Below are positions 2,775-22,237 of a stretch of 24,000 nt of DNA, piece after piece. The notes under the pieces are model-generated. The model was not told the DNA's origin. It saw nothing but the letters and a program-made list of their open reading frames with translations, and did no database searches. This DNA comes from Desulfobotulus sp. (lineage in GTDB: Bacteria; Desulfobacterota; Desulfobacteria; Desulfobacterales; ASO4-4). The translations under genes and the position numbers were made by a program. The DNA lies in the NCBI RefSeq assembly GCF_034006065.1, contig NZ_JAVETM010000001.1:293147-317146 (forward strand). Direction: 5' to 3'. Every line of letters starts with the position of its first letter. Positions within the stretch are counted from its first letter, which is position 1.

Positions 2775-2995
2775 GGGCGGAATGTCAAAATCCAGCTCCG
2801 GCCATTTCCGGTCCCCATCCGCTGAAGGGCACCCATCGACCGCATGTAGTATCAGATACCAGGGCCGGGGGGCAAGGGGGAGCCATGGCGTCGAAAATCA
2901 GCGCATACGATGCTTTATTTAAACCCAAAAACGCCCGGTTTTTCAATGTTTAAGAATAAAAATCAATGAATCCAGGCATTAAAAATGCCAAAAAT

Positions 2996-3024
2996 TTGAC
3001 ATGCGCCATAAAAACGATTATAAG
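2996..3024 (+). promoter_or_regulatory. Sigma70-type promoter for the proVWX-like operon
   Basis: TTGACA (2996-3001), a 17-nt spacer, then TATAAG (3019-3024). It sits in an AT-rich intergenic region about 80 nt upstream of ATG 3107. Confidence 0.5.
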
Positions 3025-3106
3025 TTCTTTTGCTCTGAATACATATGCCCTGGAAAAGTCCAGACTCCAGGGATTTTCCTTCTCTTTTTTCACAAACAGG
3101 AACCTT

Positions 3107-4333
3107 ATGCCCGAAGCAGAACAGAACATTAAAATACGCATAGAAGGACTCAGCAAAATCTTCGGATCCAGGCATCACATCCCTGAAGCCAGAAAAATGC
3201 TGAAGCAGGGAAAAAGCAAAGAAGAGATTCTCAGAAAAACCGGCTGCGGCGTCGGCCTGTCTGATGTGAACTTTTCCGTGGCAGAAGGCGAGATTCTTGT
3301 GGTCATGGGACTTTCCGGAAGTGGAAAATCCACCCTTGTGCGTTGCATCAACCGTCTCATTGAACCCACGTCAGGCCGCATCTTCATTGATGGGGAGGAC
3401 ATCACCGCCCTGTCTCCGGAAAAGCTGCGCCACATCCGCCTCACCAAGCTCGGCATGGTCTTCCAGAATTTTGCCCTCTTTCCCCACCGTACCGTCTGCC
3501 AGAACGCCGAATATGGTTTGGAAATCCAGGGCATGCCCCAGGAGACAAGAAAAAAAAAAGCCATGATCGCCCTTGAACAGGTTGGACTCAAAGGCTGGGA
3601 GGACCATTATCCCCACAATCTTTCCGGTGGCATGCAGCAGCGTGTGGGGCTGGCCCGGGCTCTCGCCCTGGACCCCGACATCCTCCTCATGGATGAGGCC
3701 TTCAGCGCCCTTGACCCCCTCATCCGATCCGATATGCAGGATGAACTGATCCACCTCCAGCAGAAGCTGCAGAAAACCATCGTCTTCATCAGCCACGACT
3801 TAGATGAGGCCCTCAAGATCGGAGACCGCATTGTTCTGATGAAAGACGGCCAGGTGGTGCAGATCGGCACAGCCGAAGAAATCCTCACCAACCCCGCCAC
3901 TCCCTATGTGGAAAGATTTGTGGAAAACGTTGACATCACCCGCGTACTCACCGCGGAATCCATCATGATCCGGCCCAAGGCCATGGTTTCTCCGGACATG
4001 CACGGACCCAAAACGGCTTTGCGCTTCATGCAGAAAGAAGGATTTTCCCAGATTTTTGTCCATGACAGAAAACACCGGGTGATCGGTATTCTTTCCGCAG
4101 AAGCCGCTTCCGAAGCCGCCCACAGGGGTGAGCGCGATCTGAGCGCTGTCATGCAAAAAGACTTTATCCATGTAACCCCTGAAACACCTGCTGCGGATCT
4201 CATCCCCATACTCGCAGACATTCCCTATCCCCTCCCTGTCTTAGACACCCAAGGCCATATGAAGGGCATCATTATCCGCGGCTCCCTCCTTGCGGCTCTC
4301 GCGGAAAAAGGAAGGAACAGCGACCATGCCTAG
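3107..4333 (+). CDS. proV: Glycine betaine/proline ABC transporter ATP-binding protein with C-terminal tandem CBS domains
   Basis: Walker A GLSGSGKST, signature LSGGMQQRV, Walker B ILLMDEAFSALD and an H-loop (ISHD). The roughly 130-aa CBS-like tail is typical of ProV/OpuAA. Start is moved to ATG 3107 (AGGAA upstream); the 47 residues from 2966 look non-coding and overlap the promoter. Confidence 0.9.
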   Translation: MPEAEQNIKIRIEGLSKIFGSRHHIPEARKMLKQGKSKEEILRKTGCGVGLSDVNFSVAEGEILVVMGLSGSGKSTLVRCINRLIEPTSGRIFIDGEDITALSPEKLRHIRLTKLGMVFQNFALFPHRTVCQNAEYGLEIQGMPQETRKKKAMIALEQVGLKGWEDHYPHNLSGGMQQRVGLARALALDPDILLMDEAFSALDPLIRSDMQDELIHLQQKLQKTIVFISHDLDEALKIGDRIVLMKDGQVVQIGTAEEILTNPATPYVERFVENVDITRVLTAESIMIRPKAMVSPDMHGPKTALRFMQKEGFSQIFVHDRKHRVIGILSAEAASEAAHRGERDLSAVMQKDFIHVTPETPAADLIPILADIPYPLPVLDTQGHMKGIIIRGSLLAALAEKGRNSDHA

Positions 4334-9152: not shown

Positions 9153-9184
9153 AGGGCCATGGGATGCGCCCCTCCCATGGCCCT
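9153..9184 (+). terminator. Hairpin after the MCP gene (probable terminator)
   Basis: AGGGCCATGGGA-tgcgcccc-TCCCATGGCCCT is a 12-bp stem starting 18 nt after the stop. It is followed by a pyrimidine-rich tract with short T runs, not a clean U-tract. Confidence 0.5.
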
Positions 9185-9390
9185 TCTCCCCCTTTTCCCT
9201 TTCCCTTTTCTCCCCAATGCCCTCCGGATTCAGAAATCGTTTCAACAGTAAACACGTGTTACGTGAAAAAACATTTCTATGGCAAAATCCATTTTTTTTA
9301 CACTGCTGAGGAAAAACCCAAGACAATTCAAGTTTTTTATATAAACAAATCAATAATTTATTTTTAAAGAAAAAATTTTTTAAAAAACCC

Positions 9391-9420
9391 TTGACATGAA
9401 AAGTTCATCGGGTGTACCTT
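9391..9420 (+). promoter_or_regulatory. Candidate promoter for module 1 (TTGACA with an A/T-rich UP-like tract)
   Basis: TTGACA at 9391-9396 follows about 60 nt of nearly pure A/T (9330-9388). The best -10 is weak (TACCTT, 9415-9420, 18-nt spacer). It would give a leader of roughly 215 nt containing the aptamer. Confidence 0.35.
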
Positions 9421-9504
9421 GCCTTCCATACAAAACACTGTTTACACAGCAAAGCGGCGACAACGCGGAGACACAGATTTCCGCGACGCATACACCCCGT
9501 GATC

Positions 9505-9598
9505 CGCCTATGTACAAAGCCAAACTCCGGGTAACCGGAGGACGGAAAGCCTACGGGTCCGCAAGATTGTCTTCCGGATGGCCGGGTTACCAAAGGCG
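9505..9598 (+). promoter_or_regulatory. GEMM-I (c-di-GMP-I class) riboswitch aptamer, single copy
   Basis: GCCAAAC-TCCGG-GTAA-CCGGA-GGACGGAAAGCC-TACGG-[GTCCG..CGGAT hairpin]-GGCCGGGTTACC. This has the same block order as the V. cholerae Vc2 aptamer as I recall it (GGCAAACC / GNRA-capped hairpin / GGGACGCAAAGCC / second hairpin / GGGGUUACC). The flanks CGCCT (9505-9509) and AGGCG (9594-9598) can close an outer helix. It sits about 40 nt before the SD AGGAGG and ATG 9641. Confidence 0.75.
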
Positions 9599-9640
9599 AA
9601 CTGCTCTCCAAAACCCTATTTTCACCAGGAGGAAGTTCGT

Positions 9641-10450
9641 ATGAAACGCAATTTCGGCAAAAAACTCATCATCGGCGCGGCCCTCTGCTGCCTTCCCTTC
9701 TCCGCCATGGCTCTGGAAGCTCTGGATGACAGCGCCCTCGGTGGCGTCACCGGTCAGGCCGGTGTGAGCATTGCTCTGGACGATGTGGTGATCTACATGA
9801 AGAGCATTGCAGATGTGACCTACATTGATACGGATGGTTTTGGAGGCGTTGATCGTGCTGGTATCATGATTGAGCACCAGACCGGTGGAGAAAAACTCAT
9901 CACTCTGGGCGCCATTGTGACCGATGATGTTTACGGTATCGATAAACTCAATGCCACATTCAACACCGACAATATCGGTATCCTCTCAAAAGCCGCCATC
10001 AATTCCAAAATGAATGAAATGGCAGCAGCTGCACAGCTTGCCGCCGGAGCTATTGACCAAGCCACATACGATGGCATAGCCGCTGCTGTGGATCCCAATG
10101 CAGTAAATTTTGATCCCACCAACGGATCTACCAGCAACTTTACCAATGGTATCTCCCCCCTGACCATCGATATCGGTGAGGCCGTTGCCCTTACCCAGGG
10201 CTGGACCTACAATACCAATGATACCATCCGAGGTGTAAAAGGCACCCATGTTGCCGGTGTCACAATTGGCCTGCCCACCGTGGAAATCAATACCTACTAC
10301 AACACTGTAGGCGAGCAGAAAGCAATCAAGCTTGTGGAAGTTGGTGATCATGTAGTGAATAAAGGCCACAATGAATTTATCACCATCAGAAAAACCGGTA
10401 ACGCCACCATGGCCATCCTCGGCGGCCGTCTGGAAATCGCTCCCCACTGA
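9641..10450 (+). CDS. Secreted protein, TGQAG-motif family paralog 1 (269 aa); candidate major subunit or cargo
   Basis: AGGAGG lies 8 nt upstream. Signal peptide MKRNFGKKLIIGAALCCLPFSAMA is followed by LEALDDSALGGVTGQAGVSIALDD. The protein is Thr/Asn/Gly/Ala-rich with no Cys after the signal peptide. Its N- and C-terminal segments resemble those of the proteins at 10556 and 18551. Confidence 0.85.
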   Translation: MKRNFGKKLIIGAALCCLPFSAMALEALDDSALGGVTGQAGVSIALDDVVIYMKSIADVTYIDTDGFGGVDRAGIMIEHQTGGEKLITLGAIVTDDVYGIDKLNATFNTDNIGILSKAAINSKMNEMAAAAQLAAGAIDQATYDGIAAAVDPNAVNFDPTNGSTSNFTNGISPLTIDIGEAVALTQGWTYNTNDTIRGVKGTHVAGVTIGLPTVEINTYYNTVGEQKAIKLVEVGDHVVNKGHNEFITIRKTGNATMAILGGRLEIAPH

Positions 10451-10489
10451 TGCAAATCCGGCTTAACCTCCAAGCCTGAATGCCAACGA

Positions 10490-10520
10490 AGCCCCCTCTC
10501 CTGACCGGGGAGGGGGCTTT
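10490..10520 (+). terminator. Strong hairpin with a weak U-tract after the first gene (partial terminator or attenuator)
   Basis: AGCCCCCTCTCC-tgacc-GGGGAGGGGGCT is a 12-bp stem (one G.U pair) followed only by TTT. It lies 40 nt after the stop at 10450 and 36 nt before the next ATG. Confidence 0.5.
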
Positions 10521-10555
10521 GCAACAAAAAAGCCTCGCCGGGGATCGCGACGACC

Positions 10556-11575
10556 ATGAAAATCCTTTGCCTGTTTTTTATCTGCCTCACGTGGCTCAGC
10601 CTCTGCGCCGCGCATCGCAGCGAAGCACTCCAGGCTATGGCGGATACGGATCTGGCCGCATGCACAGGACAGGCGGGCATTTCCATGGCCATTGCGGATC
10701 TGGTGGTCTATCATCATCAGGAAAACATCGCCTTTATCAGCAACCGCAAAATCGATGAAAATACCACTACCCAAACCCCGCTCACCCTCAGCAATACCCA
10801 AAGCCTTCTTACTCTGAATGCGGGCAGAACCGACATCAACGGCAATGGCAAAATTGATCCCATCACCTTGGACATCGGCATGCTTTCCGATCTGGAACGG
10901 CTCTGGAAGGAGCCCAACTGGCTGCCGGAAGATCAGTGGGAAATAATAGATGCCTTGCCCGCCGGTGTACTGGATCGCCCTGTAATCGCCCTTCGCGCTC
11001 CGGACTGGGACAGAAACCTTGAAATCCGCAACAATGGCATTTCCTTGAATGATGTGAATCTCGGTTCTTTCTCCCTTCAGGGCAGTAAGACCCAGGGGTG
11101 GGAGCTTTTTCTTTCCGCAGGCCAGATCATGAAAGTGACTGCCCCTGATGATCCTGATGATCCCAATATCCGCAAAGCGGGTATGGATTTTGAATTCGCC
11201 TTCCAAAAACACATTGAAGCCTTCACCTACAGCCCTTCCGAAAGCCAGACCCTTTCCTTTGACAATCTCTATTTTGCCAAAGACCTGACCTTTTCCGAGA
11301 CCAATGCTTCAGACATCACCGCCTCGGGTTTCTTCCGCCTGGGCAACATGCGGGAGGGCAAACCCCTCTCCATCGATATGGGCGTAACCACCGAAGGCAG
11401 AAGCCAAGCGACCCCTGTCTTAAGGCTGGACCTGAAAGATGCCAGCGGCTCCTTTGCCGTAGCCGGTATCCGGGACATCCAGGGAGCGGAAACCCGCAAC
11501 TTCGGCCCTGTCATTGCCGAAGGAATTCAGATTCATCATATGCGTCTGGAATTCCCCGGTCGGGGGACCCCATGA
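10556..11575 (+). CDS. Secreted protein, TGQAG-motif family paralog 2 (339 aa)
   Basis: Signal peptide MKILCLFFICLTWLSLCAA is followed by ...ALQAMADTDLAACTGQAGISMAIADLVVY. The motif occupies residues 28-39, the same register as in paralogs 1 and 4. There is no obvious SD sequence. Confidence 0.75.
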   Translation: MKILCLFFICLTWLSLCAAHRSEALQAMADTDLAACTGQAGISMAIADLVVYHHQENIAFISNRKIDENTTTQTPLTLSNTQSLLTLNAGRTDINGNGKIDPITLDIGMLSDLERLWKEPNWLPEDQWEIIDALPAGVLDRPVIALRAPDWDRNLEIRNNGISLNDVNLGSFSLQGSKTQGWELFLSAGQIMKVTAPDDPDDPNIRKAGMDFEFAFQKHIEAFTYSPSESQTLSFDNLYFAKDLTFSETNASDITASGFFRLGNMREGKPLSIDMGVTTEGRSQATPVLRLDLKDASGSFAVAGIRDIQGAETRNFGPVIAEGIQIHHMRLEFPGRGTP

Positions 11576-12573
11576 TCTCTGGTCTCACCCCGGAAAGAAG
11601 ACTTTGGCGAAAAAAGGCCCCCTCCCCCAAGGTCCCAGGGACTTTTTTCTGGGCCTTGTTTCTCATGCTTTCCCTGCCGGGTCTCAGCCTGGCCCAAGGG
11701 AATGGGCCTTCGGGTATTTTCGGCTTCTGTGATGGTCTGTTCAAAGAAGAGCAGAAAATCTTTTCCCTGGAAAAAGCCCCCCCCTTTCAAAGCAAAACGC
11801 CACAAAGTCCTTCGGCCATTTCGTCTCTGCCTGCTTCAGAAGAAAAGTCCCATACCTTCGCCCTCACCCAGAGCGAAAACCCGGTCTCTTCTTCCCCTTC
11901 TCCTGATCTTCTTCAGGCCAGCGCCCCCTTACAGGCCCTCTCCGACGGCGAGCTTCAGAACATCACCGCAGGCTCCATTGTGAATTTCACCATGGACGCA
12001 AGCCAGAATCTCGCCCGGATGGATCTGGATATGTACCTTGAAACGCACATGGAAATTGAAAAATTCCGTGCGGGCTATCACAACTACAATCCTGAGACCA
12101 GTCTGGGATGGGATCAGAGCTGGGATAAGGTGCGCTTCTATGGCGGGACTCTGGATGAAGAAAAGAATCCTTCAGATTTTTTCAAAGCCTATGGCCTGAC
12201 CCTTGTGGTGGAATATGAGGGTACAGAGAACAGCCGCAAGATTGCCCGTATTCTCCTGGGTTCCCCCCAGGTTTCGGGTAAAATCGATGCGCAGTTCAAC
12301 CACTTCTCCGGTGTCATCGATCAAGCGGTCAATGCCCATCTGAATGAATCCCAAGACTTAAACCCCTACCGCGTAAATCTTGGGCAGCAGACCCTTACTT
12401 TCAGCCAGGCCAATCAGGGACTTTTCCTCGGCCTGACCTTAAGCGGCGATCGCCCGGGCTTTGGCGTATTTGCGGGAAAACCCCTGGATGGCACAGGCGG
12501 TATTCTGGAAGCAGGCCGCTCAGACTGGTGGACCCAACCGGCGGGAAGCCTCTCCAAAGATTCAGCCCCCTGA
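11572..12573 (+). CDS. Secreted protein with an S/P-rich linker and an internal GG-leader-like motif (TGQAG-family paralog 3, divergent)
   Basis: ATGA start/stop overlap with the upstream gene. Hydrophobic signal ...FFWALFLMLSLPGLSLAQG, then a Ser/Pro-rich stretch of about 80 aa, then LQALSDGELQNITAGSIVNFTMD (residues 123-134). The start codon is uncertain. Confidence 0.65.
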   Translation: MISGLTPERRLWRKKAPSPKVPGTFFWALFLMLSLPGLSLAQGNGPSGIFGFCDGLFKEEQKIFSLEKAPPFQSKTPQSPSAISSLPASEEKSHTFALTQSENPVSSSPSPDLLQASAPLQALSDGELQNITAGSIVNFTMDASQNLARMDLDMYLETHMEIEKFRAGYHNYNPETSLGWDQSWDKVRFYGGTLDEEKNPSDFFKAYGLTLVVEYEGTENSRKIARILLGSPQVSGKIDAQFNHFSGVIDQAVNAHLNESQDLNPYRVNLGQQTLTFSQANQGLFLGLTLSGDRPGFGVFAGKPLDGTGGILEAGRSDWWTQPAGSLSKDSAP

Positions 12574-12684
12574 TCATAAGACTTTACAGCGCTTCCATGG
12601 GCTGCTACAAAGCAAAACATTGTTTCAAACACAAAAAGGCCCATTGAACCCTGATCGCCCCTAACCCGGAGCCTGGATCTCTCC

Positions 12685-13440
12685 ATGCACATCCTCGCCG
12701 CCTTTGTCATATTCCTTGCCTTTGCCAATGGTTTCCATCCCATCTCCGAAGAAAAGGAAAGTCACGCCGTTTTTGTGGTGGATCCGGATCAACGCATTGT
12801 GCTGCGTACCCCTGTGGTAACGGATGAGATCATCCAGTTTCGCCACCTGGTACGCCAGAACTTTGATTATTCCTGCGGGTCTGCGGCCCTGGCCACCCTG
12901 CTCAATGCTGCCATGGGCGAAAATCTCACGGAACGTCAGGTCATCCATGGTCTCATGGAATACGGAGACAAGGAGCAGATTGCCGCACGCAGAGCCTTTT
13001 CCCTTCTGGACATGAAACGCTTCGTCAATGTGCTGGGCTATGACGGCGCAGGCTATAAGGCAAAAATGGAAAACCTGCTCGATCCCCAGTACTGGCCTGC
13101 CATTGTTCCCATCAAAATCTTTGATTACCGTCATTTCGTCGTTTTTCGCGGAGCCTACGGCGGCCATGTCTTCATCGCCGACCCCTGGCGGGGAAACAGC
13201 AGCTACACGGAGGAACAGTTTGCGTCCATGTGGTATGACAATGTCATGTTTCTTGTTTCCAACGGCGAAAAAAAACATCCCAACCTCCTGCGCCTGCGCA
13301 CGGAAGACCTTCGCTATATCGACGAAGACACGGCCCGGTATTTTGTCTTTGACCAGGAAAAACCCTTTAACACCCCAAGGGACACCCAGGTGCCTGTCAA
13401 AGACGGCGTTCCCGCAGGGGGCTATTTTTATAAACCCTAG
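12685..13440 (+). CDS. Periplasmic stand-alone C39-like cysteine peptidase
   Basis: Signal peptide MHILAAFVIFLAFANG. C39 signature RQNFDYSCGSAALATLLN (Q58, C64; Cys codon 12874-12876), then ...DYRHFVVFRG..GHVFIADP (H150, D166). The Q-6-C and H-16-D spacings match what I recall for bacteriocin-processing C39 domains. Confidence 0.8.
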   Translation: MHILAAFVIFLAFANGFHPISEEKESHAVFVVDPDQRIVLRTPVVTDEIIQFRHLVRQNFDYSCGSAALATLLNAAMGENLTERQVIHGLMEYGDKEQIAARRAFSLLDMKRFVNVLGYDGAGYKAKMENLLDPQYWPAIVPIKIFDYRHFVVFRGAYGGHVFIADPWRGNSSYTEEQFASMWYDNVMFLVSNGEKKHPNLLRLRTEDLRYIDEDTARYFVFDQEKPFNTPRDTQVPVKDGVPAGGYFYKP

Positions 13441-13459
13441 AGTCTGAGGTCCGGAGATC

Positions 13460-14521
13460 ATGGTTTTTCGTCTTTTTCTTCTCATTCTTTTCTTCTTCTG
13501 CACAACAGCCCCCTCATGGGCGGAGAACGATCCGGAAATCCGGCTCCTTGAGGAGCGTCTCCAGGAGCTGGAGGCCTCCCTCAAACGCATGCAGGAAGAA
13601 AACGAGGCCCGCAGAACCCTTCAGAGTACAGCCGAAGAAAAGGCGGCTCAGGAAGAGGAAATCCTTTCCGCCGCGGGCAGGGATTACACCCTGATGCGGC
13701 CCGGACGCATGGGATTTGAATACAATTTCCGCTACTCCTACTACAGTTATGACCAGCTTGTGGAAGCCGGAAAAATCGAGCACAAGAGCAATCACAACAT
13801 TGAAAACAGCATGGTGGTGGAATATCCCCTGAAGCCCAATCTCACCCTGAGCGCAGATTTTCCCTTTGTCTTTAAAAGCGACAACAAATCCTCAGATGGC
13901 TCTTCCCGTCAGGTGTCCGATATCGGGGACTTTGTGCTGGGATTTCAGTATCAGCCCCTGAAATCCGGCGGAAAAATACCGACCACCATCCTTTCCCTCC
14001 GCGCCAGCCTGCCCGTGGGCCGCAGCCCCTATGACATCGATCCGGACAAGGAGATGGCCACCAGCTCCGGCACATACAGCCTCACCGCCGGGGCCAACTT
14101 CAGCAAGGTTTTTGATCCCATCATTGCCTATGGTGGACTGAGCTACAGCTATTATCTGCCGGAAAGCACCCGCTACCACGCCAAAGGCGTATCCTCACCG
14201 GAATATGTCTCTGAAGTGAACCGGGGAGAGCAGTTCGGATTCAGCGCCGGGTTTGGTTATGCCCTTTCTTACAGGCTCAACATCAACCTCAGTTATCAGT
14301 ACAGCCTCAGTATGCGCTCCAAATACACCTGGACCACCGATGAGACCCCGGAAAAATGGGAGACCCAGAGCCCCACATCCGCATCCTCAGTTTTCAGTAT
14401 CGGCACGGGCTGGCGCATCAGCAGCAAACGCACCATGAATGTGCGCCTTGGCATCGGCCTTACCAACAATGATCCGGACTTTACCCTGGCCATACGCCTG
14501 CCCTTTGAACTGGTCTTCTGA
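13460..14521 (+). CDS. Outer-membrane beta-barrel protein with an N-terminal coiled-coil segment
   Basis: Signal peptide MVFRLFLLILFFFCTTAPSWA. A charged heptad-like helix of about 55 aa follows (EIRLLEERLQELEASLKRMQEENEARR...EEKAAQEEE), then about 270 aa of alternating amphipathic strands ending ...AIRLPFELVF with a terminal Phe. Confidence 0.75.
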   Translation: MVFRLFLLILFFFCTTAPSWAENDPEIRLLEERLQELEASLKRMQEENEARRTLQSTAEEKAAQEEEILSAAGRDYTLMRPGRMGFEYNFRYSYYSYDQLVEAGKIEHKSNHNIENSMVVEYPLKPNLTLSADFPFVFKSDNKSSDGSSRQVSDIGDFVLGFQYQPLKSGGKIPTTILSLRASLPVGRSPYDIDPDKEMATSSGTYSLTAGANFSKVFDPIIAYGGLSYSYYLPESTRYHAKGVSSPEYVSEVNRGEQFGFSAGFGYALSYRLNINLSYQYSLSMRSKYTWTTDETPEKWETQSPTSASSVFSIGTGWRISSKRTMNVRLGIGLTNNDPDFTLAIRLPFELVF

Positions 14522-14576
14522 TGACAAAAAAAAGAGAGGCATCTTCATATTTTTCTTCAACAAAGAATTTCTTTTC

Positions 14577-16412
14577 ATGGAAACGTGTTTTGTGAAAAAC
14601 CATCCGCGCTGCCGCCCACTCACGAAACGGTCCGGGTTCGATTCAGCCTGCCTCTGGATCGTTGCCCTTGTCCTTTTTTGCCTGGTGCTTCGGCCTTTTT
14701 CCGCCGAAGCCAACTTCAATGAGCAGGTGGCCATCAGCACCAAGGCCATTTCCCTTGCCAATACCGTGACCGCAGACCCGCCGGGACTCATGTCCGTTCA
14801 TTACAACCCCGCAGGTCTCAGTCTTCTGGATGAGGGCAAGGTGTTCAGCAATGGTTTCACCCTGGCTCACATTGTCCGTACGGGACGCTTTCAGGAAGAT
14901 CCGAACTTCCCTGGTTTCATGGACACCTGGGGCCCGGGTAAACCTTACAATCCCGACTTTCCCAATGACCCTGACAGCGACCATGGCGGTCCGGACCCTC
15001 TCCGGGGGACAGAAGGCACAACCTCCGGCAACATTCTTTATGTGCCCTTTTATGGTCCCATCAGCCTCCCCGCCATCCCCGCACCCAACTTAGGTATTTC
15101 CCACAGAAGCCCAGGCTCCCGCTGGACCTTTGCCTATGCCAATTATGCGGCCTACGGCGGAGGGATTGAGCATAAGGATGCGGGCGACCCTTTGCGTTTC
15201 GGATGTAAGTCTTTGTATCTCCAGCACCTTATCTATGCAGCCCCTTCGGTGAGTTACCAGATTTCGGACACCCTTTCCGTGGGCGCCTCCATTGGCATGG
15301 GCCAAACCTCCATGGGCATTGCCATGGACCAGCGTTCTCCCAATGAGCTGGTGGCCCTCACCCGCGTCATCGGTGACGCCACAAGGGATCTTCACATTCC
15401 CGTGGTCTCAGACATGACCTTTCCCGCTCCCTGGCTGGGAGGCGGCCTGGGGCCCTATGAGCATGTGGCGAGCTTCAGGCTGGACATGAGAGACGATTAT
15501 TCCCCCAGTTTCAACCTAGGCCTCCTCTGGCAACCCCATCACCGCTTTTCCTTTGGCCTCGTTTACCAGAGCGAGACCCAGTCTGAAATGACAGGTAACT
15601 ATATTTTTCACTATTCGGAACAATTCCAGCGTCATATTGACTGGAACGGATCCACCTCCTACACCATGCAGGGAGCGGGTATTCTTGGCCTTCCCATCAA
15701 AGGGCTTCCCTTTCAGGCAGGGACGGTCACCACCACCCAGAGGTTTCCCCAGAGGGTGCAGGCGGGAATCATGGTCAAACCCTTTTCCCGCATCAAATGG
15801 CTCTTTGATGTCAACTGGACCAACTGGTCTGTCATCAAGGAAGACCGCCTTCAGTTTGATCAGCGCATCCATCTTCTTCAGCTTGTTAAACTTCTCGGTT
15901 ACACGGGCGGAGAAAGTACGCTTCTAGTGGAGCGCAATCTCAAAGACACCTGGAGCTTCAGCACAGGTCTTGAGTTCATGGTATCCGAGGCCTTAAGTCT
16001 GCGCCTTGGGTATGAAAAGCGGCCCACGTCCTTAAACTATGACCTCTTTGACGCCCTGTATTTTCTTCCGGAAAACAATTTTTACGGCACAGGCGCGGAA
16101 TTACGCTTAAAAAATGGGCTTACCATCGATCTCGGCATGGGGATTCTCATGGCAGATAAGATCAAGGTGGACAACAACCGTTCCACCAACATGAATTCCA
16201 CGGATTTCACGAAGATCGTATACAACCCCTATGCGGGTCTCAACTATGAGCAGGACACCACCATCTACCTTGCCTCCTTTACCATCACCATGCCCCTTGA
16301 GCTGCAGATGGAGCTTTTGGAGCAGAAAAAGGAGATGGCCTTAAAAGCCCTTTCCAAACTCAAAAAACTCTGGCCCTTTGGATCCAGAAAAGAAAGCACA
16401 AAAGCCCAGTGA
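14577..16412 (+). CDS. FadL/OmpP1/TodX-family outer-membrane channel, unusually long (611 aa) with a C-terminal helical tail
   Basis: The N-terminal region after the signal (LWIVALVLFCLVLRPFSAEA) reads ...AISLANTVTADPPGLMSVHYNPAGLSLL, a typical FadL-family opening. Later FadL-like blocks are present (LRLGYEKRPTS..., FYGTGAELRL). After the last strand comes the tail ELQMELLEQKKEMALKALSKLKKLWPF.... The start is uncertain: ATG 14577 has no clear SD, and GTG 14592 is an alternative. Confidence 0.7.
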   Translation: METCFVKNHPRCRPLTKRSGFDSACLWIVALVLFCLVLRPFSAEANFNEQVAISTKAISLANTVTADPPGLMSVHYNPAGLSLLDEGKVFSNGFTLAHIVRTGRFQEDPNFPGFMDTWGPGKPYNPDFPNDPDSDHGGPDPLRGTEGTTSGNILYVPFYGPISLPAIPAPNLGISHRSPGSRWTFAYANYAAYGGGIEHKDAGDPLRFGCKSLYLQHLIYAAPSVSYQISDTLSVGASIGMGQTSMGIAMDQRSPNELVALTRVIGDATRDLHIPVVSDMTFPAPWLGGGLGPYEHVASFRLDMRDDYSPSFNLGLLWQPHHRFSFGLVYQSETQSEMTGNYIFHYSEQFQRHIDWNGSTSYTMQGAGILGLPIKGLPFQAGTVTTTQRFPQRVQAGIMVKPFSRIKWLFDVNWTNWSVIKEDRLQFDQRIHLLQLVKLLGYTGGESTLLVERNLKDTWSFSTGLEFMVSEALSLRLGYEKRPTSLNYDLFDALYFLPENNFYGTGAELRLKNGLTIDLGMGILMADKIKVDNNRSTNMNSTDFTKIVYNPYAGLNYEQDTTIYLASFTITMPLELQMELLEQKKEMALKALSKLKKLWPFGSRKESTKAQ

Positions 16413-16444
16413 ACCTCTCCCAATTCTGAGTCAATGGAGTATGT

Positions 16445-17935
16445 ATGCCTTCTTTCCTCGTACAAGTCTTCTTTGTTTTCCTTGCTCTTGTTCTTCCCGT
16501 CGGCGGTCTTTGTCAGCCCAGCCTGCGCGTTACCGAAGAATTTTTCGGAATGCCCGAATCCGGTATCCAGATTTTCGGCCTCACGGCGGATGACCAGCTC
16601 AGCCATGTGGCCTATGCGGTGCAGGATGAAAAGGGTATGTTCGTTCGCATGGACAAAGAGGAGGGACCTCACTTTGAGTCCATCCGCAAAGGCACCCCGC
16701 TTTTCGGCCCCCAGGGCCATATCATGGTCTACGTAGGCTTCCGACAGGCCAAAAGCCATGTCTGGGTGAATGGGAAGGAAAAGGGGATTTACGATGGCGC
16801 AGACAGTTTTACCTTCAGCCCAACGGGTCAGCATCTGGCCTATCGCGTTGAAGTTAAAGGCCAGGGCCAGGCCGTGGTTTCCGGAGACAAACAAGGACCT
16901 TTTTTCCGGATGGTGGATCCGGAAAGCCTTGTCATGGCCCAGGACGGAGGCCTTGCCTATGTGGGGATGGACCCGGACAGAGGGGCGGTGCTCATGGTCA
17001 ATGGCAGGGAGGCCGGGATTTTTGAGGGGGTGCGGGAGCTACGCTTTTCCCCAGAAGGCCATTTTGCCTGTGCTGTGAAAAAAGATGGCCTGTGGCACCT
17101 TTTTCTGGAAAACACCATGGAAAAAGAAGGGTATGAGGGCATTCAGTACATTGGATTTTCCCCGGACAGTGAGAAAATCGCCCTTGTCATCCTCCGTAAG
17201 GGCAAACTCAGTGTGCGCATGGGAAAGGACACCCACAGATCCTGGGATACGGTGGGGCCTCCCCTCTTTTCTCCGGACAGCCAACGCCTTGCCTATCCCG
17301 CCAAACAGGGTGAGCGCTGGGCCATGGTGGTGGATGGAAAAAGGGGGGATCGCCACGATCTTCTGGGCCCGCCCCTCTTTTCTCCGGACAGTCAGCACAT
17401 CGCCTGGATGGCTGTGGAAAAAGATCACTCTTTTTATGTGGTGAACCACAAAAAACAGCCTGCCTATGAGACTGTGGACGGCTTTGCCTTTCATCCGCAA
17501 AAAGGCTTTGCCTACAGGGCCAGGCAAAAGGAAAAATGGCATCTTGTCACCGAGCTTGGGGAAGGCCAGGCCCATGATGGCGTCACGCCCCCCCTCTTCC
17601 ATGAAAACGGCCGTCTTCTCTTTGGCATTGCCGATGATCATCAGCAGCGGCTGGTGGTGGATGGGGTTCCCGGCCCTCCGGCGGATCAGATCAGCCCTGC
17701 GGTTTACAGTCCAGGAGGCCAGCATGTGGGATGCGCTGTGATTCTCGATAAAAAATGGTACCTGGATATGGATGGCCAGCGCACTCCCATTGAAAATATC
17801 ACCGCCTTTCTCAATCAGGCGCCGGTGCGGTTTATTGATGAAAACACCATGCAGGGGCTGGCTTACCAGCTTCCTGGGCCCCGTTTTCTGAAAATCTCCG
17901 CAACCCTTGAAAATTTCAAGGAAACCATTGAGTGA
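16445..17935 (+). CDS. Secreted beta-propeller-like repeat protein (PD40/TolB-like FSPDG repeats)
   Basis: GGAG lies 5 nt upstream. Signal peptide MPSFLVQVFFVFLALVLPVGGLC. There are about 10 repeats of roughly 40 aa carrying F/YSP(D/E/T/G)(G/S)xxhAY-type motifs (FSPTGQHLAY, FSPEGHFAC, FSPDSEKIAL, FSPDSQRLAY, FSPDSQHIAW, YSPGGQHVGC). Confidence 0.7.
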   Translation: MPSFLVQVFFVFLALVLPVGGLCQPSLRVTEEFFGMPESGIQIFGLTADDQLSHVAYAVQDEKGMFVRMDKEEGPHFESIRKGTPLFGPQGHIMVYVGFRQAKSHVWVNGKEKGIYDGADSFTFSPTGQHLAYRVEVKGQGQAVVSGDKQGPFFRMVDPESLVMAQDGGLAYVGMDPDRGAVLMVNGREAGIFEGVRELRFSPEGHFACAVKKDGLWHLFLENTMEKEGYEGIQYIGFSPDSEKIALVILRKGKLSVRMGKDTHRSWDTVGPPLFSPDSQRLAYPAKQGERWAMVVDGKRGDRHDLLGPPLFSPDSQHIAWMAVEKDHSFYVVNHKKQPAYETVDGFAFHPQKGFAYRARQKEKWHLVTELGEGQAHDGVTPPLFHENGRLLFGIADDHQQRLVVDGVPGPPADQISPAVYSPGGQHVGCAVILDKKWYLDMDGQRTPIENITAFLNQAPVRFIDENTMQGLAYQLPGPRFLKISATLENFKETIE

Positions 17936-18119: not shown

Positions 18120-18145
18120 AGGTAAAGGGGTCGTCGAAGCGATGC

Positions 18146-18207
18146 GCCAAACCATGGGCAACCATGGGACGGAAAGCCACGGGTCCCACAGGGACAGCCG
18201 GGCCGCC
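18146..18207 (+). promoter_or_regulatory. GEMM-I-like riboswitch aptamer, tandem unit R1
   Basis: GCCAAAC-CATGG-GCAA-CCATG-GGACGGAAAGCC-ACGG-[GTCCC-aca-GGGAC]-AGCCGGGCCGCC. It has a GNRA loop (GCAA) and is nearly identical to R4. Confidence 0.75.
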
Positions 18208-18218
18208 TCAATCCTCAA

Positions 18219-18290
18219 GCCAAACCGGAGGTAACTCCGGGACGGAAAGCCACGGATCCAGAACTTTACATCTGGACAGCCGGGTTGCAC
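18219..18290 (+). promoter_or_regulatory. GEMM-I-like riboswitch aptamer, tandem unit R2
   Basis: GCCAAAC-CGGAG-GTAA-CTCCG-GGACGGAAAGCC-ACGG-[ATCCAGA-actttaca-TCTGGAC]-AGCCGGGTTGCA. Both stems differ from R1 by compensatory changes. Confidence 0.75.
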
Positions 18291-18294
18291 CAAA

Positions 18295-18360
18295 GCCAAA
18301 CCGGGGGTAACCCCGGGACGGAAAGTCACGGATCCGCATGGTGCGGATGGCCGGGCCGCC
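18295..18360 (+). promoter_or_regulatory. GEMM-I-like riboswitch aptamer, tandem unit R3
   Basis: GCCAAAC-CGGGG-GTAA-CCCCG-GGACGGAAAGTC-ACGG-[ATCCGCA-tgg-TGCGGAT]-GGCCGGGCCGCC. It has its own second-hairpin sequence and is followed by a separate hairpin at 18360-18378. Confidence 0.7.
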
Positions 18361-18378
18361 TGCCGGAATTTCCGGCAG
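18360..18378 (+). promoter_or_regulatory. Hairpin immediately 3' of aptamer R3 (possible internal expression platform)
   Basis: CTGCCGG-aattt-CCGGCAG is a perfect 7-bp stem. Its left arm starts at the last nucleotide of R3, and it is followed by ATTTCA, which is not a convincing U-tract. Confidence 0.4.
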
Positions 18379-18384
18379 ATTTCA

Positions 18385-18446
18385 GCCAAACCATGGGCAA
18401 CCATGGGACGGAAAGCCACGGGTCCCACAGGGACAGCCGGGCCGCC
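18385..18446 (+). promoter_or_regulatory. GEMM-I-like riboswitch aptamer, tandem unit R4 (copy of R1)
   Basis: It has the same 62-nt sequence as R1 as far as I can align by eye and lies 239 nt downstream of R1. Confidence 0.75.
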
Positions 18447-18456
18447 TCCTTCTCAA

Positions 18457-18527
18457 GCCAAACCGGGGGTAACTCCGGGACGGAAAGCCACGGGTCCAGA
18501 ACTTTACATCTGGACAGCCGGGTTGCC
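18457..18527 (+). promoter_or_regulatory. GEMM-I-like riboswitch aptamer, tandem unit R5 (copy of R2)
   Basis: GCCAAAC-CGGGG-GTAA-CTCCG-GGACGGAAAGCC-ACGG-[GTCCAGA-actttaca-TCTGGAC]-AGCCGGGTTGCC. It differs from R2 at two stem positions. Its end lies 10 nt before the SD AAAGGAG and 23 nt before ATG 18551. Confidence 0.75.
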
Positions 18528-18550
18528 TGTAGTACAGAAAGGAGTCTTCC

Positions 18551-19021
18551 ATGAGCAAGCTTCGTTTCCTCCTGGTTTTCTGCACCATGACGGCAATCAC
18601 CCTGTCCACGGCCTCTGCCGGACTGATTGCCATGACAGAAACCGAAATGCATCATGTGACCGCCCAGGCTGGTGTTTTCATCGATGTGGACAAGGTCCGC
18701 TTTGATTCCGAAATGAAAACCCTTAGTTACGGCAGCGATGCCACCGGATGGATCAGCCTCAATGACGTGAGGATTTCCACCTTCGTCAACAGCGGCAAAC
18801 CCATTGAGGTGGGCATGGTTACCGAATACAACCCCTACGAGGGCCGTACCATGGAAATGATGAAAATCGACTTTACGGATGTGGAAATCCGCATGGACGA
18901 ACTTCTCATCGGCTCCATCCGCGTGGGTCCCCGTCCGGGGGAAGGGCCAAGCTTCGGGAGCATCGGCATCACCGGGTTTCACGCAAACATGTCAGGGAAC
19001 GTGCGCATATGGACCCGCTGA
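18551..19021 (+). CDS. Small secreted protein, TGQAG-motif family paralog 4 (156 aa)
   Basis: AAAGGAG lies 6-7 nt upstream. Signal peptide MSKLRFLLVFCTMTAITLSTASA is followed by GLIAMTETEMHHVTAQAGVFIDVD, with the motif at residues 28-39. Its C-terminus (...GFHANMSGNVRIWTR) resembles that of paralog 1 (...GNATMAILGGRLEIAPH). Confidence 0.85.
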   Translation: MSKLRFLLVFCTMTAITLSTASAGLIAMTETEMHHVTAQAGVFIDVDKVRFDSEMKTLSYGSDATGWISLNDVRISTFVNSGKPIEVGMVTEYNPYEGRTMEMMKIDFTDVEIRMDELLIGSIRVGPRPGEGPSFGSIGITGFHANMSGNVRIWTR

Positions 19022-19197
19022 GGTTCTGTGCCTGGACGCACCCCTTTACCTCCTCCTTTTTCCCCATGTCAGAAGTGCTGGAAATACCAAAGTACCGCAT
19101 CCTTTCCATGCCATTCCAACCCTTCTCCCTTTCCCGATCTGACCCATAACCCCTTTTTAGGCGGCACCCCATGCCCCGGAAACCGCAGGATTGTCCC

Positions 19198-20061
19198 ATG
19201 CAACCCGCTTTTATCTTGATTTTGTTGCTTTTTCCATTTTGGTTTTCCCCTGTTTCGGCCCAGGCCGCGCCCTTCCTTGCGCCCGGTCAGATCACCGGAA
19301 CAGCCGGGCCCGCGGATCCGCCGGAACAAGGGCTTGCAAAGGGCATGGTCAGCCTTTCCCTCTTTACCCAGAAAAATGAATCGCCCCTGGGAAGGGAACG
19401 TTTTGCATGGATAGATCCGGAGGATGAAAACCAGGAAGAACGCCACAGAGCACGAAAATGGCGCTCCATCTATGACATGCAGGGTCTGAGCCTGAGGGGT
19501 GCCTATGCCTTTTCTGCAGTCTCCGCCTATTTCCTGGTTGGGATGGCGCAAACGGACATCACCTTTTCCTACAGGGATGAAACCAGAAAATATCAGTCTT
19601 CCAGCGCTTTTTATGACGAAAGCACCCGCTTCCGGGATGAAAGCCATCTTTTTTTCGGTGGTGGTCTCACCGCAGCCATGGCCCGCTGGCAACCCAATCC
19701 CGATACACGCATCGCCCTGGATGCGGATCTTTCTTATCGCTACCACGCCTTAAACCCCGAAGACCAGAACAGTCGAAGCTGGAGTTCTGTACTCCACGAA
19801 ATCCAAGGAGCCATGACCTTAGGCCTCATGATGGAAAAATGGACACCCTTCACAGGCCTTCGCATCAGCCACATCAGCGGCCAAATGACCTATGAGGACA
19901 AAAAAGAGGGGATCAGGGTCAGCAAAAGCATTGAGGCGGGAAAGGATATTGGCTATACCTTCGGCATTCGCTACCGCGCCCTGCCCTGGCTGGATCTGAC
20001 CCTTGCCTCCCGCTACGGGGATGAAAGCGGATATCACCTGGAATGCGCCTTTGTTTTCTGA
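19198..20061 (+). CDS. Small outer-membrane beta-barrel protein (about 287 aa)
   Basis: AGGA lies 7 nt before ATG 19198; the alternative ATG 19171 has a poorer SD. Signal peptide MQPAFILILLLFPFWFSPVSAQA, alternating-strand pattern, and a C-terminus of ...GYHLECAFVF with terminal Phe. Confidence 0.7.
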   Translation: MQPAFILILLLFPFWFSPVSAQAAPFLAPGQITGTAGPADPPEQGLAKGMVSLSLFTQKNESPLGRERFAWIDPEDENQEERHRARKWRSIYDMQGLSLRGAYAFSAVSAYFLVGMAQTDITFSYRDETRKYQSSSAFYDESTRFRDESHLFFGGGLTAAMARWQPNPDTRIALDADLSYRYHALNPEDQNSRSWSSVLHEIQGAMTLGLMMEKWTPFTGLRISHISGQMTYEDKKEGIRVSKSIEAGKDIGYTFGIRYRALPWLDLTLASRYGDESGYHLECAFVF

Positions 20062-20086
20062 CTGTCCCCAAAGGAGAATCCCAACC

Positions 20087-22237
20087 ATGCAAACTCTTTC
20101 CGGCAAAATACGGTATTTATCCGGATTTCTGCTGATTTTCTGTTTCTGCACCGGCGCCTTTGCCCAGGCAAAGATCAGCGGAGTGCTGCGCTGGCCAGGC
20201 AGCAGCATACGATCGGTCACAGGCAACAGCGACCATCTCATTCACACCCATGGCAATCTTCTACGGATATTTCAGAGAACGGATGACACGCTTCTTGCCG
20301 CCGTCCCCATCGCCCTTCAGGAAGGCCTGCGCGGCCTTGCCCATGCGCCGGATCAGAATCGTATTTACCTGGCCTGTGGCACGGATGGTCTGCGCATCCT
20401 CAACCTTGAAAATCCCACACACCCTGTGGTGACAGCCTACGACATCAATCCGCAAAATGCCGGAAAAAAAGACGCAAGTGGCCGGTATATCGCCCATACC
20501 TTTGCCCCCATGGGCCTCTTTTACCTGGAAAAACGCCTCTATGTGGCGGATTTCATGTATGGCCTCCGGGTTTTTGATGTCAGCATTCCCGAAGAGCCGA
20601 AGGAAATCGCAGCATATCGCCAGGGCACTGGGGATGCATCCGGCGGTTATCTCCAGGTTTTTGTGCACCGGGAAGCAGGACGGACCCTGATCTCGGTTCT
20701 GGATAAATACCACGGCCTCCACCTTTTCGATGCAGCGGACCAGCAGGCCGGAGACGCTGAAAAAAAATGGACGCCCGCAGCTAGCTTTGATATGCGTTCC
20801 AAAACCTATTATGGTCAGATTTCCCTGGTCACTGGCCTCTTTGCAGAAGGTCCCAGGGTTTTTGTAACAGACGAGGAAAACGGGCTGACCATCCTCCACC
20901 TTTTCAATGAATCCCAGCAGAGGGACTCTTTAAAAATTGTCAAGGAGGGCCAGTGTAAAACCCCTGGAAAGGCCATGGACCTTGTTGTGGATACCCATCT
21001 TCAGCGGGCTTTCATCGCAGACACGGAAAAAGGCCTTTCCGTTGTGGGTCTTGAATCCCTCTTTGACAATGATCCCGCAACCCGTGTGCAGGACAGCGAC
21101 TTCAAAGGCGCAGAAAGCCGCGCGGATGATCTCGGGGGCAGCCACAGCCTCTGGAAAGATCCCATGGAAAATGCCCTCTACCTTGCTTCCTATGCCAAAG
21201 ATCTCAGTCGTATCCGTCTCGGGTCGCCGCAGATAGAAAAAACCTTTCCGCCAGCTCTGGATTTTCGCCAGATCCAACGGCAAGGATCCACCCTCATCCT
21301 TTCGGACCACGGTCATTTAAGGGGGTTTCGCGTCATGGACATCACCCATATGCTTGAGCCAGATTCCGATGCAGCCTATTTTCCAAGGCAACTGGCGGAA
21401 AAAGGAACCCAGGCCCCGGCCCAGGCTCTCCGGGTTTCCGGAAACCGCCTTTTCACCGCAGAAGGGCCAAAGGGCCTGGGCGTCTATGATCTCACGGATC
21501 CGGCTGCGCCCCTTTTTCTTGCCCAGATTACAGCCCAGGAAATTCCGGGGCTTGACGATGTGCGGGATGTGGTCATCCGCGATGCCCTCGCTTTCTGCCT
21601 CATTCAGGGAAAGGGGATTGCGGTTCTTGATCTGGCCAATCCCGCTCAGCCTGTGCAGAAAAACCTGATTTCCGAGTACGACCAGGCCGTGGGACTTTTT
21701 CTGGATGCCAGCACCCTCTGGATCGCAGACAGACAAAAGGGACTTGTCGCCCTTTCCGTTACCCATCCTGAAACGCCCGAAAAAATCCGTAGCCTGGCCC
21801 TCACAGCCCCCCAAGCTCTCTGGGCGGATGAAACGCGGGTTCTTGTGGCCGAAGGACCCCATGGGCTTTTTGTTTATGAAAAAACAAGCGGCCTTTCTTC
21901 CCAGGTGGCCCTGAAGGACGGGGCCGAAGCTGCCCATGTTTTTGGCCTGAATCATTTTGCCTTTGTGTCCTGTGGGCAAAAGGGCGTGCAGATGATCGAC
22001 CTCACAGCCTCCCAAGGTCCTGAGACCGTAGCCTCGCTGGACAGCTATGGAAAAACCCTTGCTGGCTTAGGGCTCAACCAGGATCTGTACATGGCGGAAG
22101 CCACAGGTGGGCTTGCGGTTTTGCGCTTTGTACTCGGAGACGAAGCCTCCCCAGCCCCCCTGCCCAGCATCCGGACCAGTTCATCTTCCTGCTTTCTGGA
22201 CAGCCTGATTCATGGGAAAAAGGGGATCCGGCCATGA
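20087..22237 (+). CDS. LVIVD-repeat beta-propeller protein, secreted (716 aa)
   Basis: AGGAG lies about 10 nt upstream of ATG 20087. Signal peptide MQTLSGKIRYLSGFLLIFCFCTGAFAQA. LVIVD-type units recur: LYVADFMYGLRVFDVSIPEEPKEI, AFIADTEKGLSVVGL, LFTAEGPKGLGVYDLTDPAAP, AFCLIQGKGIAVLDLANPAQP, LWIADRQKGLVALSVTHPETPEKI, VLVAEGPHGLFVYE, AFVSCGQKGVQMIDLT, LYMAEATGGLAVLRF. Confidence 0.8.
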   Translation: MQTLSGKIRYLSGFLLIFCFCTGAFAQAKISGVLRWPGSSIRSVTGNSDHLIHTHGNLLRIFQRTDDTLLAAVPIALQEGLRGLAHAPDQNRIYLACGTDGLRILNLENPTHPVVTAYDINPQNAGKKDASGRYIAHTFAPMGLFYLEKRLYVADFMYGLRVFDVSIPEEPKEIAAYRQGTGDASGGYLQVFVHREAGRTLISVLDKYHGLHLFDAADQQAGDAEKKWTPAASFDMRSKTYYGQISLVTGLFAEGPRVFVTDEENGLTILHLFNESQQRDSLKIVKEGQCKTPGKAMDLVVDTHLQRAFIADTEKGLSVVGLESLFDNDPATRVQDSDFKGAESRADDLGGSHSLWKDPMENALYLASYAKDLSRIRLGSPQIEKTFPPALDFRQIQRQGSTLILSDHGHLRGFRVMDITHMLEPDSDAAYFPRQLAEKGTQAPAQALRVSGNRLFTAEGPKGLGVYDLTDPAAPLFLAQITAQEIPGLDDVRDVVIRDALAFCLIQGKGIAVLDLANPAQPVQKNLISEYDQAVGLFLDASTLWIADRQKGLVALSVTHPETPEKIRSLALTAPQALWADETRVLVAEGPHGLFVYEKTSGLSSQVALKDGAEAAHVFGLNHFAFVSCGQKGVQMIDLTASQGPETVASLDSYGKTLAGLGLNQDLYMAEATGGLAVLRFVLGDEASPAPLPSIRTSSSSCFLDSLIHGKKGIRP

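Follow-up and report, generated by a model that had tools for sequence, protein, structure and literature searches.

What does a single aptamer for cyclic di-guanosine monophosphate (c-di-GMP) do at the head of an operon when five more aptamers of the same kind stand further downstream in the same locus? The question is raised by a 24,000-nucleotide (nt) stretch of a Desulfobotulus sp. genome (contig NZ_JAVETM010000001.1, positions 293,147 to 317,146), here called the window, in which one aptamer at 9505-9598 precedes the gene starting at 9641 and an array of five precedes the gene starting at 18551. All coordinates below are those of the window, and the single aptamer, the leader elements around it and the gene at 9641 lie on its + strand. 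The single element is a class I c-di-GMP (c-di-GMP-I) aptamer in what is predicted to be the leader of a putative surface-fibre operon related to the Fil pilus and Fap amyloid systems, and it probably functions as a translational ON switch through a hairpin that captures the Shine-Dalgarno (SD) sequence. Translational control by this element is predicted from modelled folds with moderate confidence; the ON direction in this particular leader can be predicted only with moderate-to-low confidence.

An earlier note on this DNA, made from the letters alone, had proposed a covariance-model check. In that comparison (Rfam cmscan), 9509-9594 (+) matches RF01051, the c-di-GMP-I family, over model positions 1-87 with 58.7 bits and an E-value of 2.5e-9, well beyond the gathering score of 35. 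Together with the closing helix CGCCU 9505-9509 / AGGCG 9594-9598 (duplex energy -6.6 to -9.4 kcal/mol), the match makes 9505-9598 a complete c-di-GMP-I (GEMM-I) aptamer, and the parts that the earlier note had described, namely P1, P2, a 3' block and this closing helix, are all present where it placed them. Positions are given here in the numbering of Vc2, the RF01051 type example from Vibrio cholerae, which the alignment of the six window aptamers reproduces by chance. The segment AAAGCCAAAC in the 5' part of the aptamer, read in the sequence of 9300-9800, carries a G at 9519, and the Rfam model alignment makes 9519-9521 G20, C21 and C22. C21 (9520) pairs with G46 (9545) and C22 (9521) with G45 (9544); positions 9519-9521 show no variation in six of six window aptamers and 29 of 29 related ones. 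The first hairpin comprises CUCCGG 9525-9530, a GUAA tetraloop of the GNRA type at 9531-9534 and CCGGAG 9535-9540. It is followed by GACGGAAAGCC (9541-9551), in which 9544-9546 are G45, G46 and A47, the last (9546) being the equivalent of the intercalating ligand contact. The second helix (9549-9587) pairs GCC 9549-9551 with GGU 9585-9587 and CGG 9554-9556 with CCG 9582-9584, and is continued by the second hairpin core GUCCG 9557-9561 / CGGAU 9575-9579, both as given by RNAalifold and pair counts. The 3' segment GGGTTACC (9584-9591) ends in C92 and C93 (9590-9591), of which C92 (9590) corresponds to the Watson-Crick partner of the G-beta base of the ligand.

The ligand pocket described for this class is thus intact in the window. 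In the Vc2 structure, A47 is the intercalating ligand contact and G20 contacts G-alpha (PMC4744006); G20 and C92, the latter as Watson-Crick partner of G-beta, are likewise described as ligand-contacting (PMC6140456). All three have their counterparts (G9519, A9546 and C9590), which are invariant across the six window aptamers, and position 92 is a C in each of the 26 leader aptamers that were compared. The canonical 11-nt tetraloop receptor is missing from the second hairpin, where the Rfam alignment has gaps at the CUAA and uAu positions of the model. The fold itself is borne out by 29 related aptamers: standard pairs occupy 96.9% of the pair cells, compared with 27-52% when partner columns are slid, and double-sided changes occur at 10 of 20 pairs (five of the six in the first hairpin), amounting to 85 cells versus 27.7 +/- 4.7 in shuffles, none of 500 of which reaches 85. 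We identify 9505-9598 from its sequence, with high confidence, as a class I c-di-GMP riboswitch aptamer with a canonical pocket; genuine but unremarkable, it adds one more case to a very well-known class. Two unpaired core positions, Vc2 24 and 43 (9523 and 9542), also co-vary across loci, CCACAC accompanying G[C/U]CGG and CCAAAC accompanying G[A/G]CGG, a pattern which suggests a non-canonical contact.

The sole systematic departure from the Rfam consensus is a flipped pair next to the pocket, C21-G46 (GCC...GACGG; C9520-G9545 in the window) for the consensus G21-C46 (GGC...GACGC). The flip is common to all six window aptamers and to all 26 leader aptamers examined, and since the six share C21-G46, G20, A47 and C92, the earlier view that single aptamer and array units belong to one sequence subtype holds. 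Calling them a variant class was only partly apt: the shared sequence difference is there, but it consists of nothing more than the flipped pair, is widespread, and defines neither a class of its own nor the Rfam 'GGC' family. A pattern scan across one genome per species (GCCAMAC-N5-GNRA-N6-GNCGGAAAGCC; by our own calculation, about four chance matches are expected) returned at least 120 stretches with 128 cores among the matches listed. In those matches, the hosts are mostly Thermodesulfobacteriota, joined by Sulfurovum, Sulfuricurvum, Thiomicrorhabdus, Stutzerimonas stutzeri, Photobacterium, Glaciecola, Methylococcaceae and Nitrosomonadales and, further afield, by Planctomycetes, Omnitrophota, Acidobacteria, Poribacteria, Zixibacteria, Sumerlaeota and a metagenome-assembled genome (MAG) from Bacillota. 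In 18 of 18 sampled loci, the flipped-pair aptamer passes the gathering threshold of a family in the Rfam c-di-GMP-I clan. Pfam applied to 97 downstream open reading frames (ORFs) of the same listed matches found PEP-CTERM (9) and DUF6160 (3) proteins, cadherin-like adhesins, trypsin/PDZ proteases, PilZ, pilin-like proteins and cytochromes; these ORF calls are approximate, the expression for the 3' block having mostly failed to match. A hidden Markov model (HMM) of our own for the FilA-like subfamily proved too narrow for the genes after the 128 cores, and Pfam on the 97 ORFs was used in its place. Because its hosts are so widespread and the genes behind it are the usual c-di-GMP-I repertoire, the flip is best seen as marking a common subtype whose pocket is canonical, rather than a gene-specific or obviously ligand-altered class. 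Family competition in Rfam assigns many flipped-pair aptamers, including the array unit at 18448-18531, to RF03167 ('GGC') despite their A47 and canonical pocket, and this labelling is a likely source of mis-annotation.

How general the pairing of this RNA with this kind of gene may be is seen beyond the window. A profile of 32 homologues led to 38 metagenomic loci, about 35 of which have enough upstream sequence, and in about 26 of these a c-di-GMP-I aptamer above the Rfam gathering threshold lies 35-50 nt ahead of the DUF6160 gene. Counted from C92, the AUG follows after 40-56 nt in each of the 26 leaders measured. Six loci (L012, L015, L016, L018, L035 and L038) hold two or three aptamers each, and the extra ones in L015, L016, L035 and L038 each precede a further DUF6160 paralog. 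In the cultured Desulfothermus okinawensis (L127), a single aptamer is followed by a gene like that at 9641. Where protein identity falls to 60% (P0003, locus L043) and 52% (P0004, L044), the aptamer is kept while the flanking leader sequence diverges. The earlier note had argued for a regulatory link from its repetition within one locus; since about 26 of some 35 independent loci from metagenomes show the arrangement, often with one aptamer per paralog, the case is stronger than the window sequence could make it. The link between c-di-GMP-I aptamers and DUF6160 / Fil-Fap-like operons is real, conserved and strong, and it had left no trace in our literature searches on DUF6160 and filA, which returned nothing relevant and no mention of a riboswitch association. 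It would give these uncharacterised operons a firm regulatory input, c-di-GMP, and suggest that in Desulfobacterales and other anaerobes they serve in surface fibres or biofilm matrix.

The manner of control has to be sought between the aptamer and the start codon. The earlier statement that no intrinsic terminator lies between aptamer and SD extends to the surroundings: no terminator-like site was found on the + strand between 9100 and 9800. The SD sequence, AGGAGGA at 9627-9633, stands 7 nt before the ATG at 9641 and is conserved in relatives. Minimum free energy (MFE) folds predict that it is sequestered by a hairpin at 9596-9640, in which GCGAACU 9596-9602 pairs with AGUUCGU 9634-9640 and an anti-SD, UCUCC 9605-9609, pairs with 9628-9632 of the SD around an 18-nt loop (9610-9627). 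The pairing of CTCTCC with GGAGGA, which had been put forward as speculative, turns out to be the core of this larger, conserved structure. The hairpin is part of the MFE structure of the isolated leader as well as of 9500-9660 and is seen in every fold. It shares 3 nt (9596-9598) with the 3' strand of the closing helix, and its calculated energy of -13.1 kcal/mol alone drops to -5.8 kcal/mol once the closing helix takes them. The hairpin is kept in L043 and L044, with U9602-A9634 replaced by G-U in L044; in L001, L002, L045 and L046 the stretch from aptamer to start is identical over the available sequence. Within this window clade, the junction after C92 reads CCAAAGGCG. An alternative OFF arrangement, in which CUCUCC 9604-9609 would invade the aptamer at GGAGGA 9537-9542, was rejected: it would require melting the GNRA hairpin, which is very stable, and homologues show nothing comparable.

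Analogous hairpins occur in 22 further leaders, and it is in the distant homologues that their coupling to the aptamer is most direct. There the hairpin begins at C92 itself (CCUCUGG...), so that C92, C93, U, C and U pair with the SD GGAGG. The upper stem varies between clades yet stays complementary (GGCAGGUUGG/CUAACCUGUC, GGUAAGAUU/AAUCUUAUC, GGUAAAUUU/AAAUUUACU), with several different pair types at homologous positions. Because MAFFT misaligned the SD blocks of the platform region, RNAalifold gave no structure there, and the platform was assessed by per-sequence folds, z-scores and an arm-swap test. Across 25 leaders, the mean z-score of the hairpin is -3.19, with 18 below -2; C93 pairs with a G in or adjoining the SD in 20 and C92 in 18; and hairpins built of their own arms reach -14.8 kcal/mol, as opposed to -9.5 kcal/mol with swapped arms. 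When the bound state is mimicked by removing the 3' strand of the aptamer, the probability that the SD is unpaired rises in most distant leaders, for instance from 0.10 to 0.77 in L004, from 0.00 to 0.75 in L019 and from 0.08 to 0.85 in L035. Because the same nucleotides serve ligand contact and closing helix, a bound aptamer would have to release the SD in these homologues, whose modelled folds follow the logic of an ON switch at translation initiation. They show how compact such a platform can be, the anti-SD being supplied by the ligand-contacting C92 together with the 3' strand of the closing helix.

From the lack of a terminator, the SD-burying hairpin that overlaps the closing helix and the hairpins of homologues that start at C92, we infer a translational ON switch in the window as well. 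Without ligand, the 5-bp closing helix would yield its 3' strand to the hairpin 9596-9640, which would hide the SD and abut the start codon, blocking translation. With c-di-GMP bound, the closing helix would be locked and the hairpin left without its three basal pairs, weakened from about -13 to about -6 kcal/mol. Ribosomes could then open it, turning translation initiation ON as c-di-GMP rises. As a secondary effect, the length of the operon might bring in transcriptional polarity.

Several observations in the window weigh against this account. The anti-SD UCUCC 9605-9609 is internal to the hairpin and outside the aptamer, with only the 3-nt overlap at the closing helix to connect the two, and the bound-state mimic frees no SD in the window, L043 or L044 (unpaired probability 0.00 to 0.02). 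The hairpin has a z-score of only -1.98, and the window clade offers only three distinct sequences with a single compensatory change in it. The start of transcription is placed solely by promoter conservation, and the position of the flipped C21-G46 next to the pocket may bear on affinity. As modelled, the switch in the window would depend on a calculated weakening of about 7 kcal/mol and not on an all-or-none rearrangement, and the platform of the window clade appears to be a derived version of the homologues' design with weaker coupling. Since the SD is paired in both modelled states in this clade, the polarity could even be the opposite, with ligand stabilising SD sequestration and turning translation OFF, for instance if the closing helix stacked coaxially on the residual hairpin 9599-9637. 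Such stacking is geometrically possible, G9598 at the end of the closing helix abutting A9599 at the start of the residual hairpin, and the OFF direction is reported for Vc2/tfoY (bioRxiv 10.1101/617340). This polarity nevertheless seems improbable: in at least 20 distant homologues C92, C93 and the closing helix's 3' strand form the anti-SD, and a bound ligand has to pull them away from the SD; in the window, formation of the closing helix costs the hairpin three basal pairs and about 7 kcal/mol; and induction of a matrix or fibre operon by c-di-GMP would be more natural than its repression.

The near-constant SD accessibility calculated for the window also leaves room for the idea that the aptamer acts on the transcript, ligand-dependent Rho termination or RNase access setting the mRNA level while the SD hairpin is constitutive. 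The missing intrinsic terminator agrees with this, the length of the operon (9641-17935) makes polarity effects plausible, and Vc2 is reported to control RNA stability (bioRxiv 10.1101/617340). The distance from C92 to the AUG, which is conserved within narrow limits (40-56 nt), and the family-wide pairing of C92 and C93 with the SD favour translation instead, and no C-rich, G-poor stretch for Rho loading is evident, although no dedicated search was made; control of the transcript is, on balance, unlikely. A change in what the aptamer senses is a much more remote prospect. That the flip makes the subtype a true specificity or affinity variant, responding to another cyclic or linear dinucleotide or at a very different c-di-GMP threshold, could be argued from its replacement of two upper-case, highly conserved positions of the Rfam consensus beside G20 and A47 and from its fixation in 29 of 29 DUF6160-associated aptamers. 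G20, A47 and C92 are intact, however, exchanging G-C for C-G is isosteric, the subtype stands in many phyla before typical targets (PEP-CTERM proteins, adhesins, PilZ, pilins), and the A20 signature of cyclic AMP-GMP (cGAMP) binding is absent from the window aptamer (PMC6140456), so that we consider such a variant very improbable. Least credible of all is a decayed or chance look-alike without regulatory role: with an E-value of 2.5e-9, retention in L043 and L044 while the flanks diverge and an arrangement that recurs family-wide, this reading appears effectively refuted on sequence grounds. A translational ON switch remains the account we prefer.

Several known systems resemble the element in part. 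With Vc2, it shares two covarying hairpins and a closing helix, the GNRA tetraloop, G20, A47 and C92 and a predicted position in the 5' leader; the inter-helix C44-G83 pair of Vc2 has its equivalents in C9543 and, probably, G9581. It differs in having C21-G46 in place of G21-C46 and in lacking the 11-nt tetraloop receptor, neither of which is a universal requirement of the family, and in a platform whose SD hairpin predicts ON where Vc2 is reported as OFF. Vc1, upstream of gbpA in V. cholerae (PMC4744006), offers a parallel of a c-di-GMP-I aptamer controlling a secreted or surface colonisation factor, but host, downstream gene and platform differ, and Vc1 is experimentally supported whereas the window element is known from sequence. 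The fold is also that of the GEMM-Ib cGAMP riboswitches such as Gs1761 of Geobacter, whose hosts are likewise former Deltaproteobacteria. An A at position 20 is the signature of that subclass (PMC6140456), and the window has a G there (G9519). Among the DUF6160 leaders, A20 does replace G20 in L030 (316-399), L033 (356-444), L038 (1829-1915), L039 (206-295) and L035 (1248-1330); it marks cGAMP-sensing or bispecific GEMM-Ib RNAs, and L035 has both kinds within one locus, one aptamer with A20 and two with G20. The architecture is similar, too, to that of c-di-GMP-I-GGC (RF03167), to which Rfam competition assigns several sister aptamers. The window aptamer itself scores 55.4 bits there, short of the cut-off of 59, and has A47 rather than the G of the model consensus GACGCGAAG, while the GGC consensus keeps G21-C46; the label 'GGC' is taken here in the sense that the RF03167 consensus line suggests. 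Published tandem c-di-GMP-I arrangements (the Bc3-5 triple, PMC4759541; a survey, PMC9481103) resemble the window locus in placing multiple aptamers before a surface-protein gene. The aptamer at 9505-9598 differs from them as a singlet, and the neighbouring array as five units without individual platforms.

The gene behind the single aptamer (9641-10450) encodes a 269-residue secreted DUF6160/FilA-like protein (Pfam, NCBIfam). Its ATG at 9641 is backed by 32 aligned homologues that begin with MK; a start at 9578 inside the aptamer, called in L041 and L042, was dismissed as a gene-calling artefact, homologues beginning at MKR. Against a Pfam gathering cut-off of 27 bits, DUF6160 is matched by the products of 9641 (46.3 bits, E 5.4e-12), 10556 (29.6 bits, E 9e-7) and 18551 (40.3 bits, E 4e-10). 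The genes at 9641 and 18551 had been called paralogs. This stands for the shared N-terminal DUF6160 domain, detected by Pfam and by hhalign (E 3.6e-5 over 72 N-terminal columns), and does not extend beyond that domain, pairwise BLASTP between the two proteins not being significant. The window has matches among metagenome contigs, and homologues of the 9641 protein come from Desulfobacterales MAGs. An AlphaFold2 model of it (mean predicted local distance difference test score, pLDDT, 78.9) has no neighbour among solved structures, the best Foldseek E-value being 0.035 with a template-modelling (TM) score below 0.2. One DUF6160 homologue, P0023, is filed in EukProt under the eukaryote Chilomastix cuspidata and is most likely a bacterial contamination of that transcriptome.

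Gene order in module 1 (9641-17935), as read by NCBIfam, is that of the filA-D pilus and Fap amyloid export systems (NF050077-80, NF058616, NF058560), that is FilA, FilB/FapD, FilC/FapF and FilD: FilA-like proteins at 9641 and 10556, a FilB/FapD-like C39 peptidase at 12685, a FilC/FapF-like channel at 13460 and a FilD/FadL-like protein at 14439. None of the NCBIfam cut-offs is reached, the window scores being far lower (FilA 33.7 against 220, FilB 207.6 against 475, FilC 178.5 against 630, FilD 301.7 against 970), with E-values that are significant, such as 2.5e-8 for pilus_FilA on the 9641 protein. By the NCBI criterion, the module 1 proteins appear to be distant relatives of the Fil/Fap families and not members, with function assigned by analogy, and the operon would encode a putative Fil/Fap-like secreted-fibre system. 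Module 1 also contains a beta-propeller protein with a TmcD-like match at 16445, and module 2 (18551-23862) consists of a short DUF6160 protein, a beta-barrel protein, an LVIVD-repeat protein and an AMIN/HEAT protein.

Upstream of the aptamer, a putative sigma-70-type promoter at 9391-9420 separates TTGACA 9391-9396 from TACCTT 9415-9420 by 18 nt and follows an A-rich block. A consensus promoter scan made no call at 9391-9420, where the -10 hexamer matches only three of six positions; the A-tract/TTGACA/TACCTT block is kept in L043 and L044, two diverged relatives whose flanking sequence varies. Transcription would start near 9427, which would put the aptamer inside the 5' leader. The upstream MCP gene stops at 9135 and is followed by a 12-bp GC-rich hairpin (9153-9184) with a T/C-rich tail, a probable terminator separating that gene from the riboswitch operon; the operon is therefore probably served by a promoter of its own. 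Between promoter and aptamer, the leader forms a further hairpin at 9453-9474 (CGCGGA 9453-9458 / UCCGCG 9469-9474), whose arms change together, to CGUGAA/UUCACG in L043 and CAUGAAG/CUUCAUG in L044, and which has no match in Rfam.

The single aptamer is a counterpart to the array in the same locus, and the pair could be useful in understanding how aptamer number shapes the response. A permissive Rfam scan places the array units at 18137-18211, 18209-18292, 18286-18364, 18386-18444 and 18448-18531, back to back ahead of the short DUF6160 gene at 18551 and with no room for separate expression platforms. A survey of tandem c-di-GMP-I riboswitches lists doublets (347) and triplets (12) only (PMC9481103); the five-aptamer array exceeds these and is more unusual than the single aptamer. 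Multi-aptamer leaders are recurrent on the 18551 type of gene, because two other loci have them before short 18551-like proteins (phmmer E 6e-9 and 1e-8): L110, from a Syntrophaceae UBA6087 MAG, with three flipped-pair cores at 3836-4099, two of the three at the Rfam threshold, and L142, from a Desulfobacteraceae MAG, with a double tandem of aptamers at 2937-3272. A broader and rather doubtful proposal is that the locus gates two DUF6160 fibre modules by the same sensor at different copy number, deploying them in sequence as c-di-GMP rises, and that aptamers on DUF6160 genes mark an unrecognised, widely distributed Fil/Fap-like regulon of c-di-GMP (in some species cGAMP) in sulfate reducers and their relatives. 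If this were true, the single, loosely coupled aptamer would give module 1 a graded response and the five fused aptamers on one platform would give module 2 a steep, high-threshold one. Within the array, units 1-2 closely resemble units 4-5, and only the last unit has a C92-C93-U (18526-18528) that can pair with the SD AGG (18540-18542).

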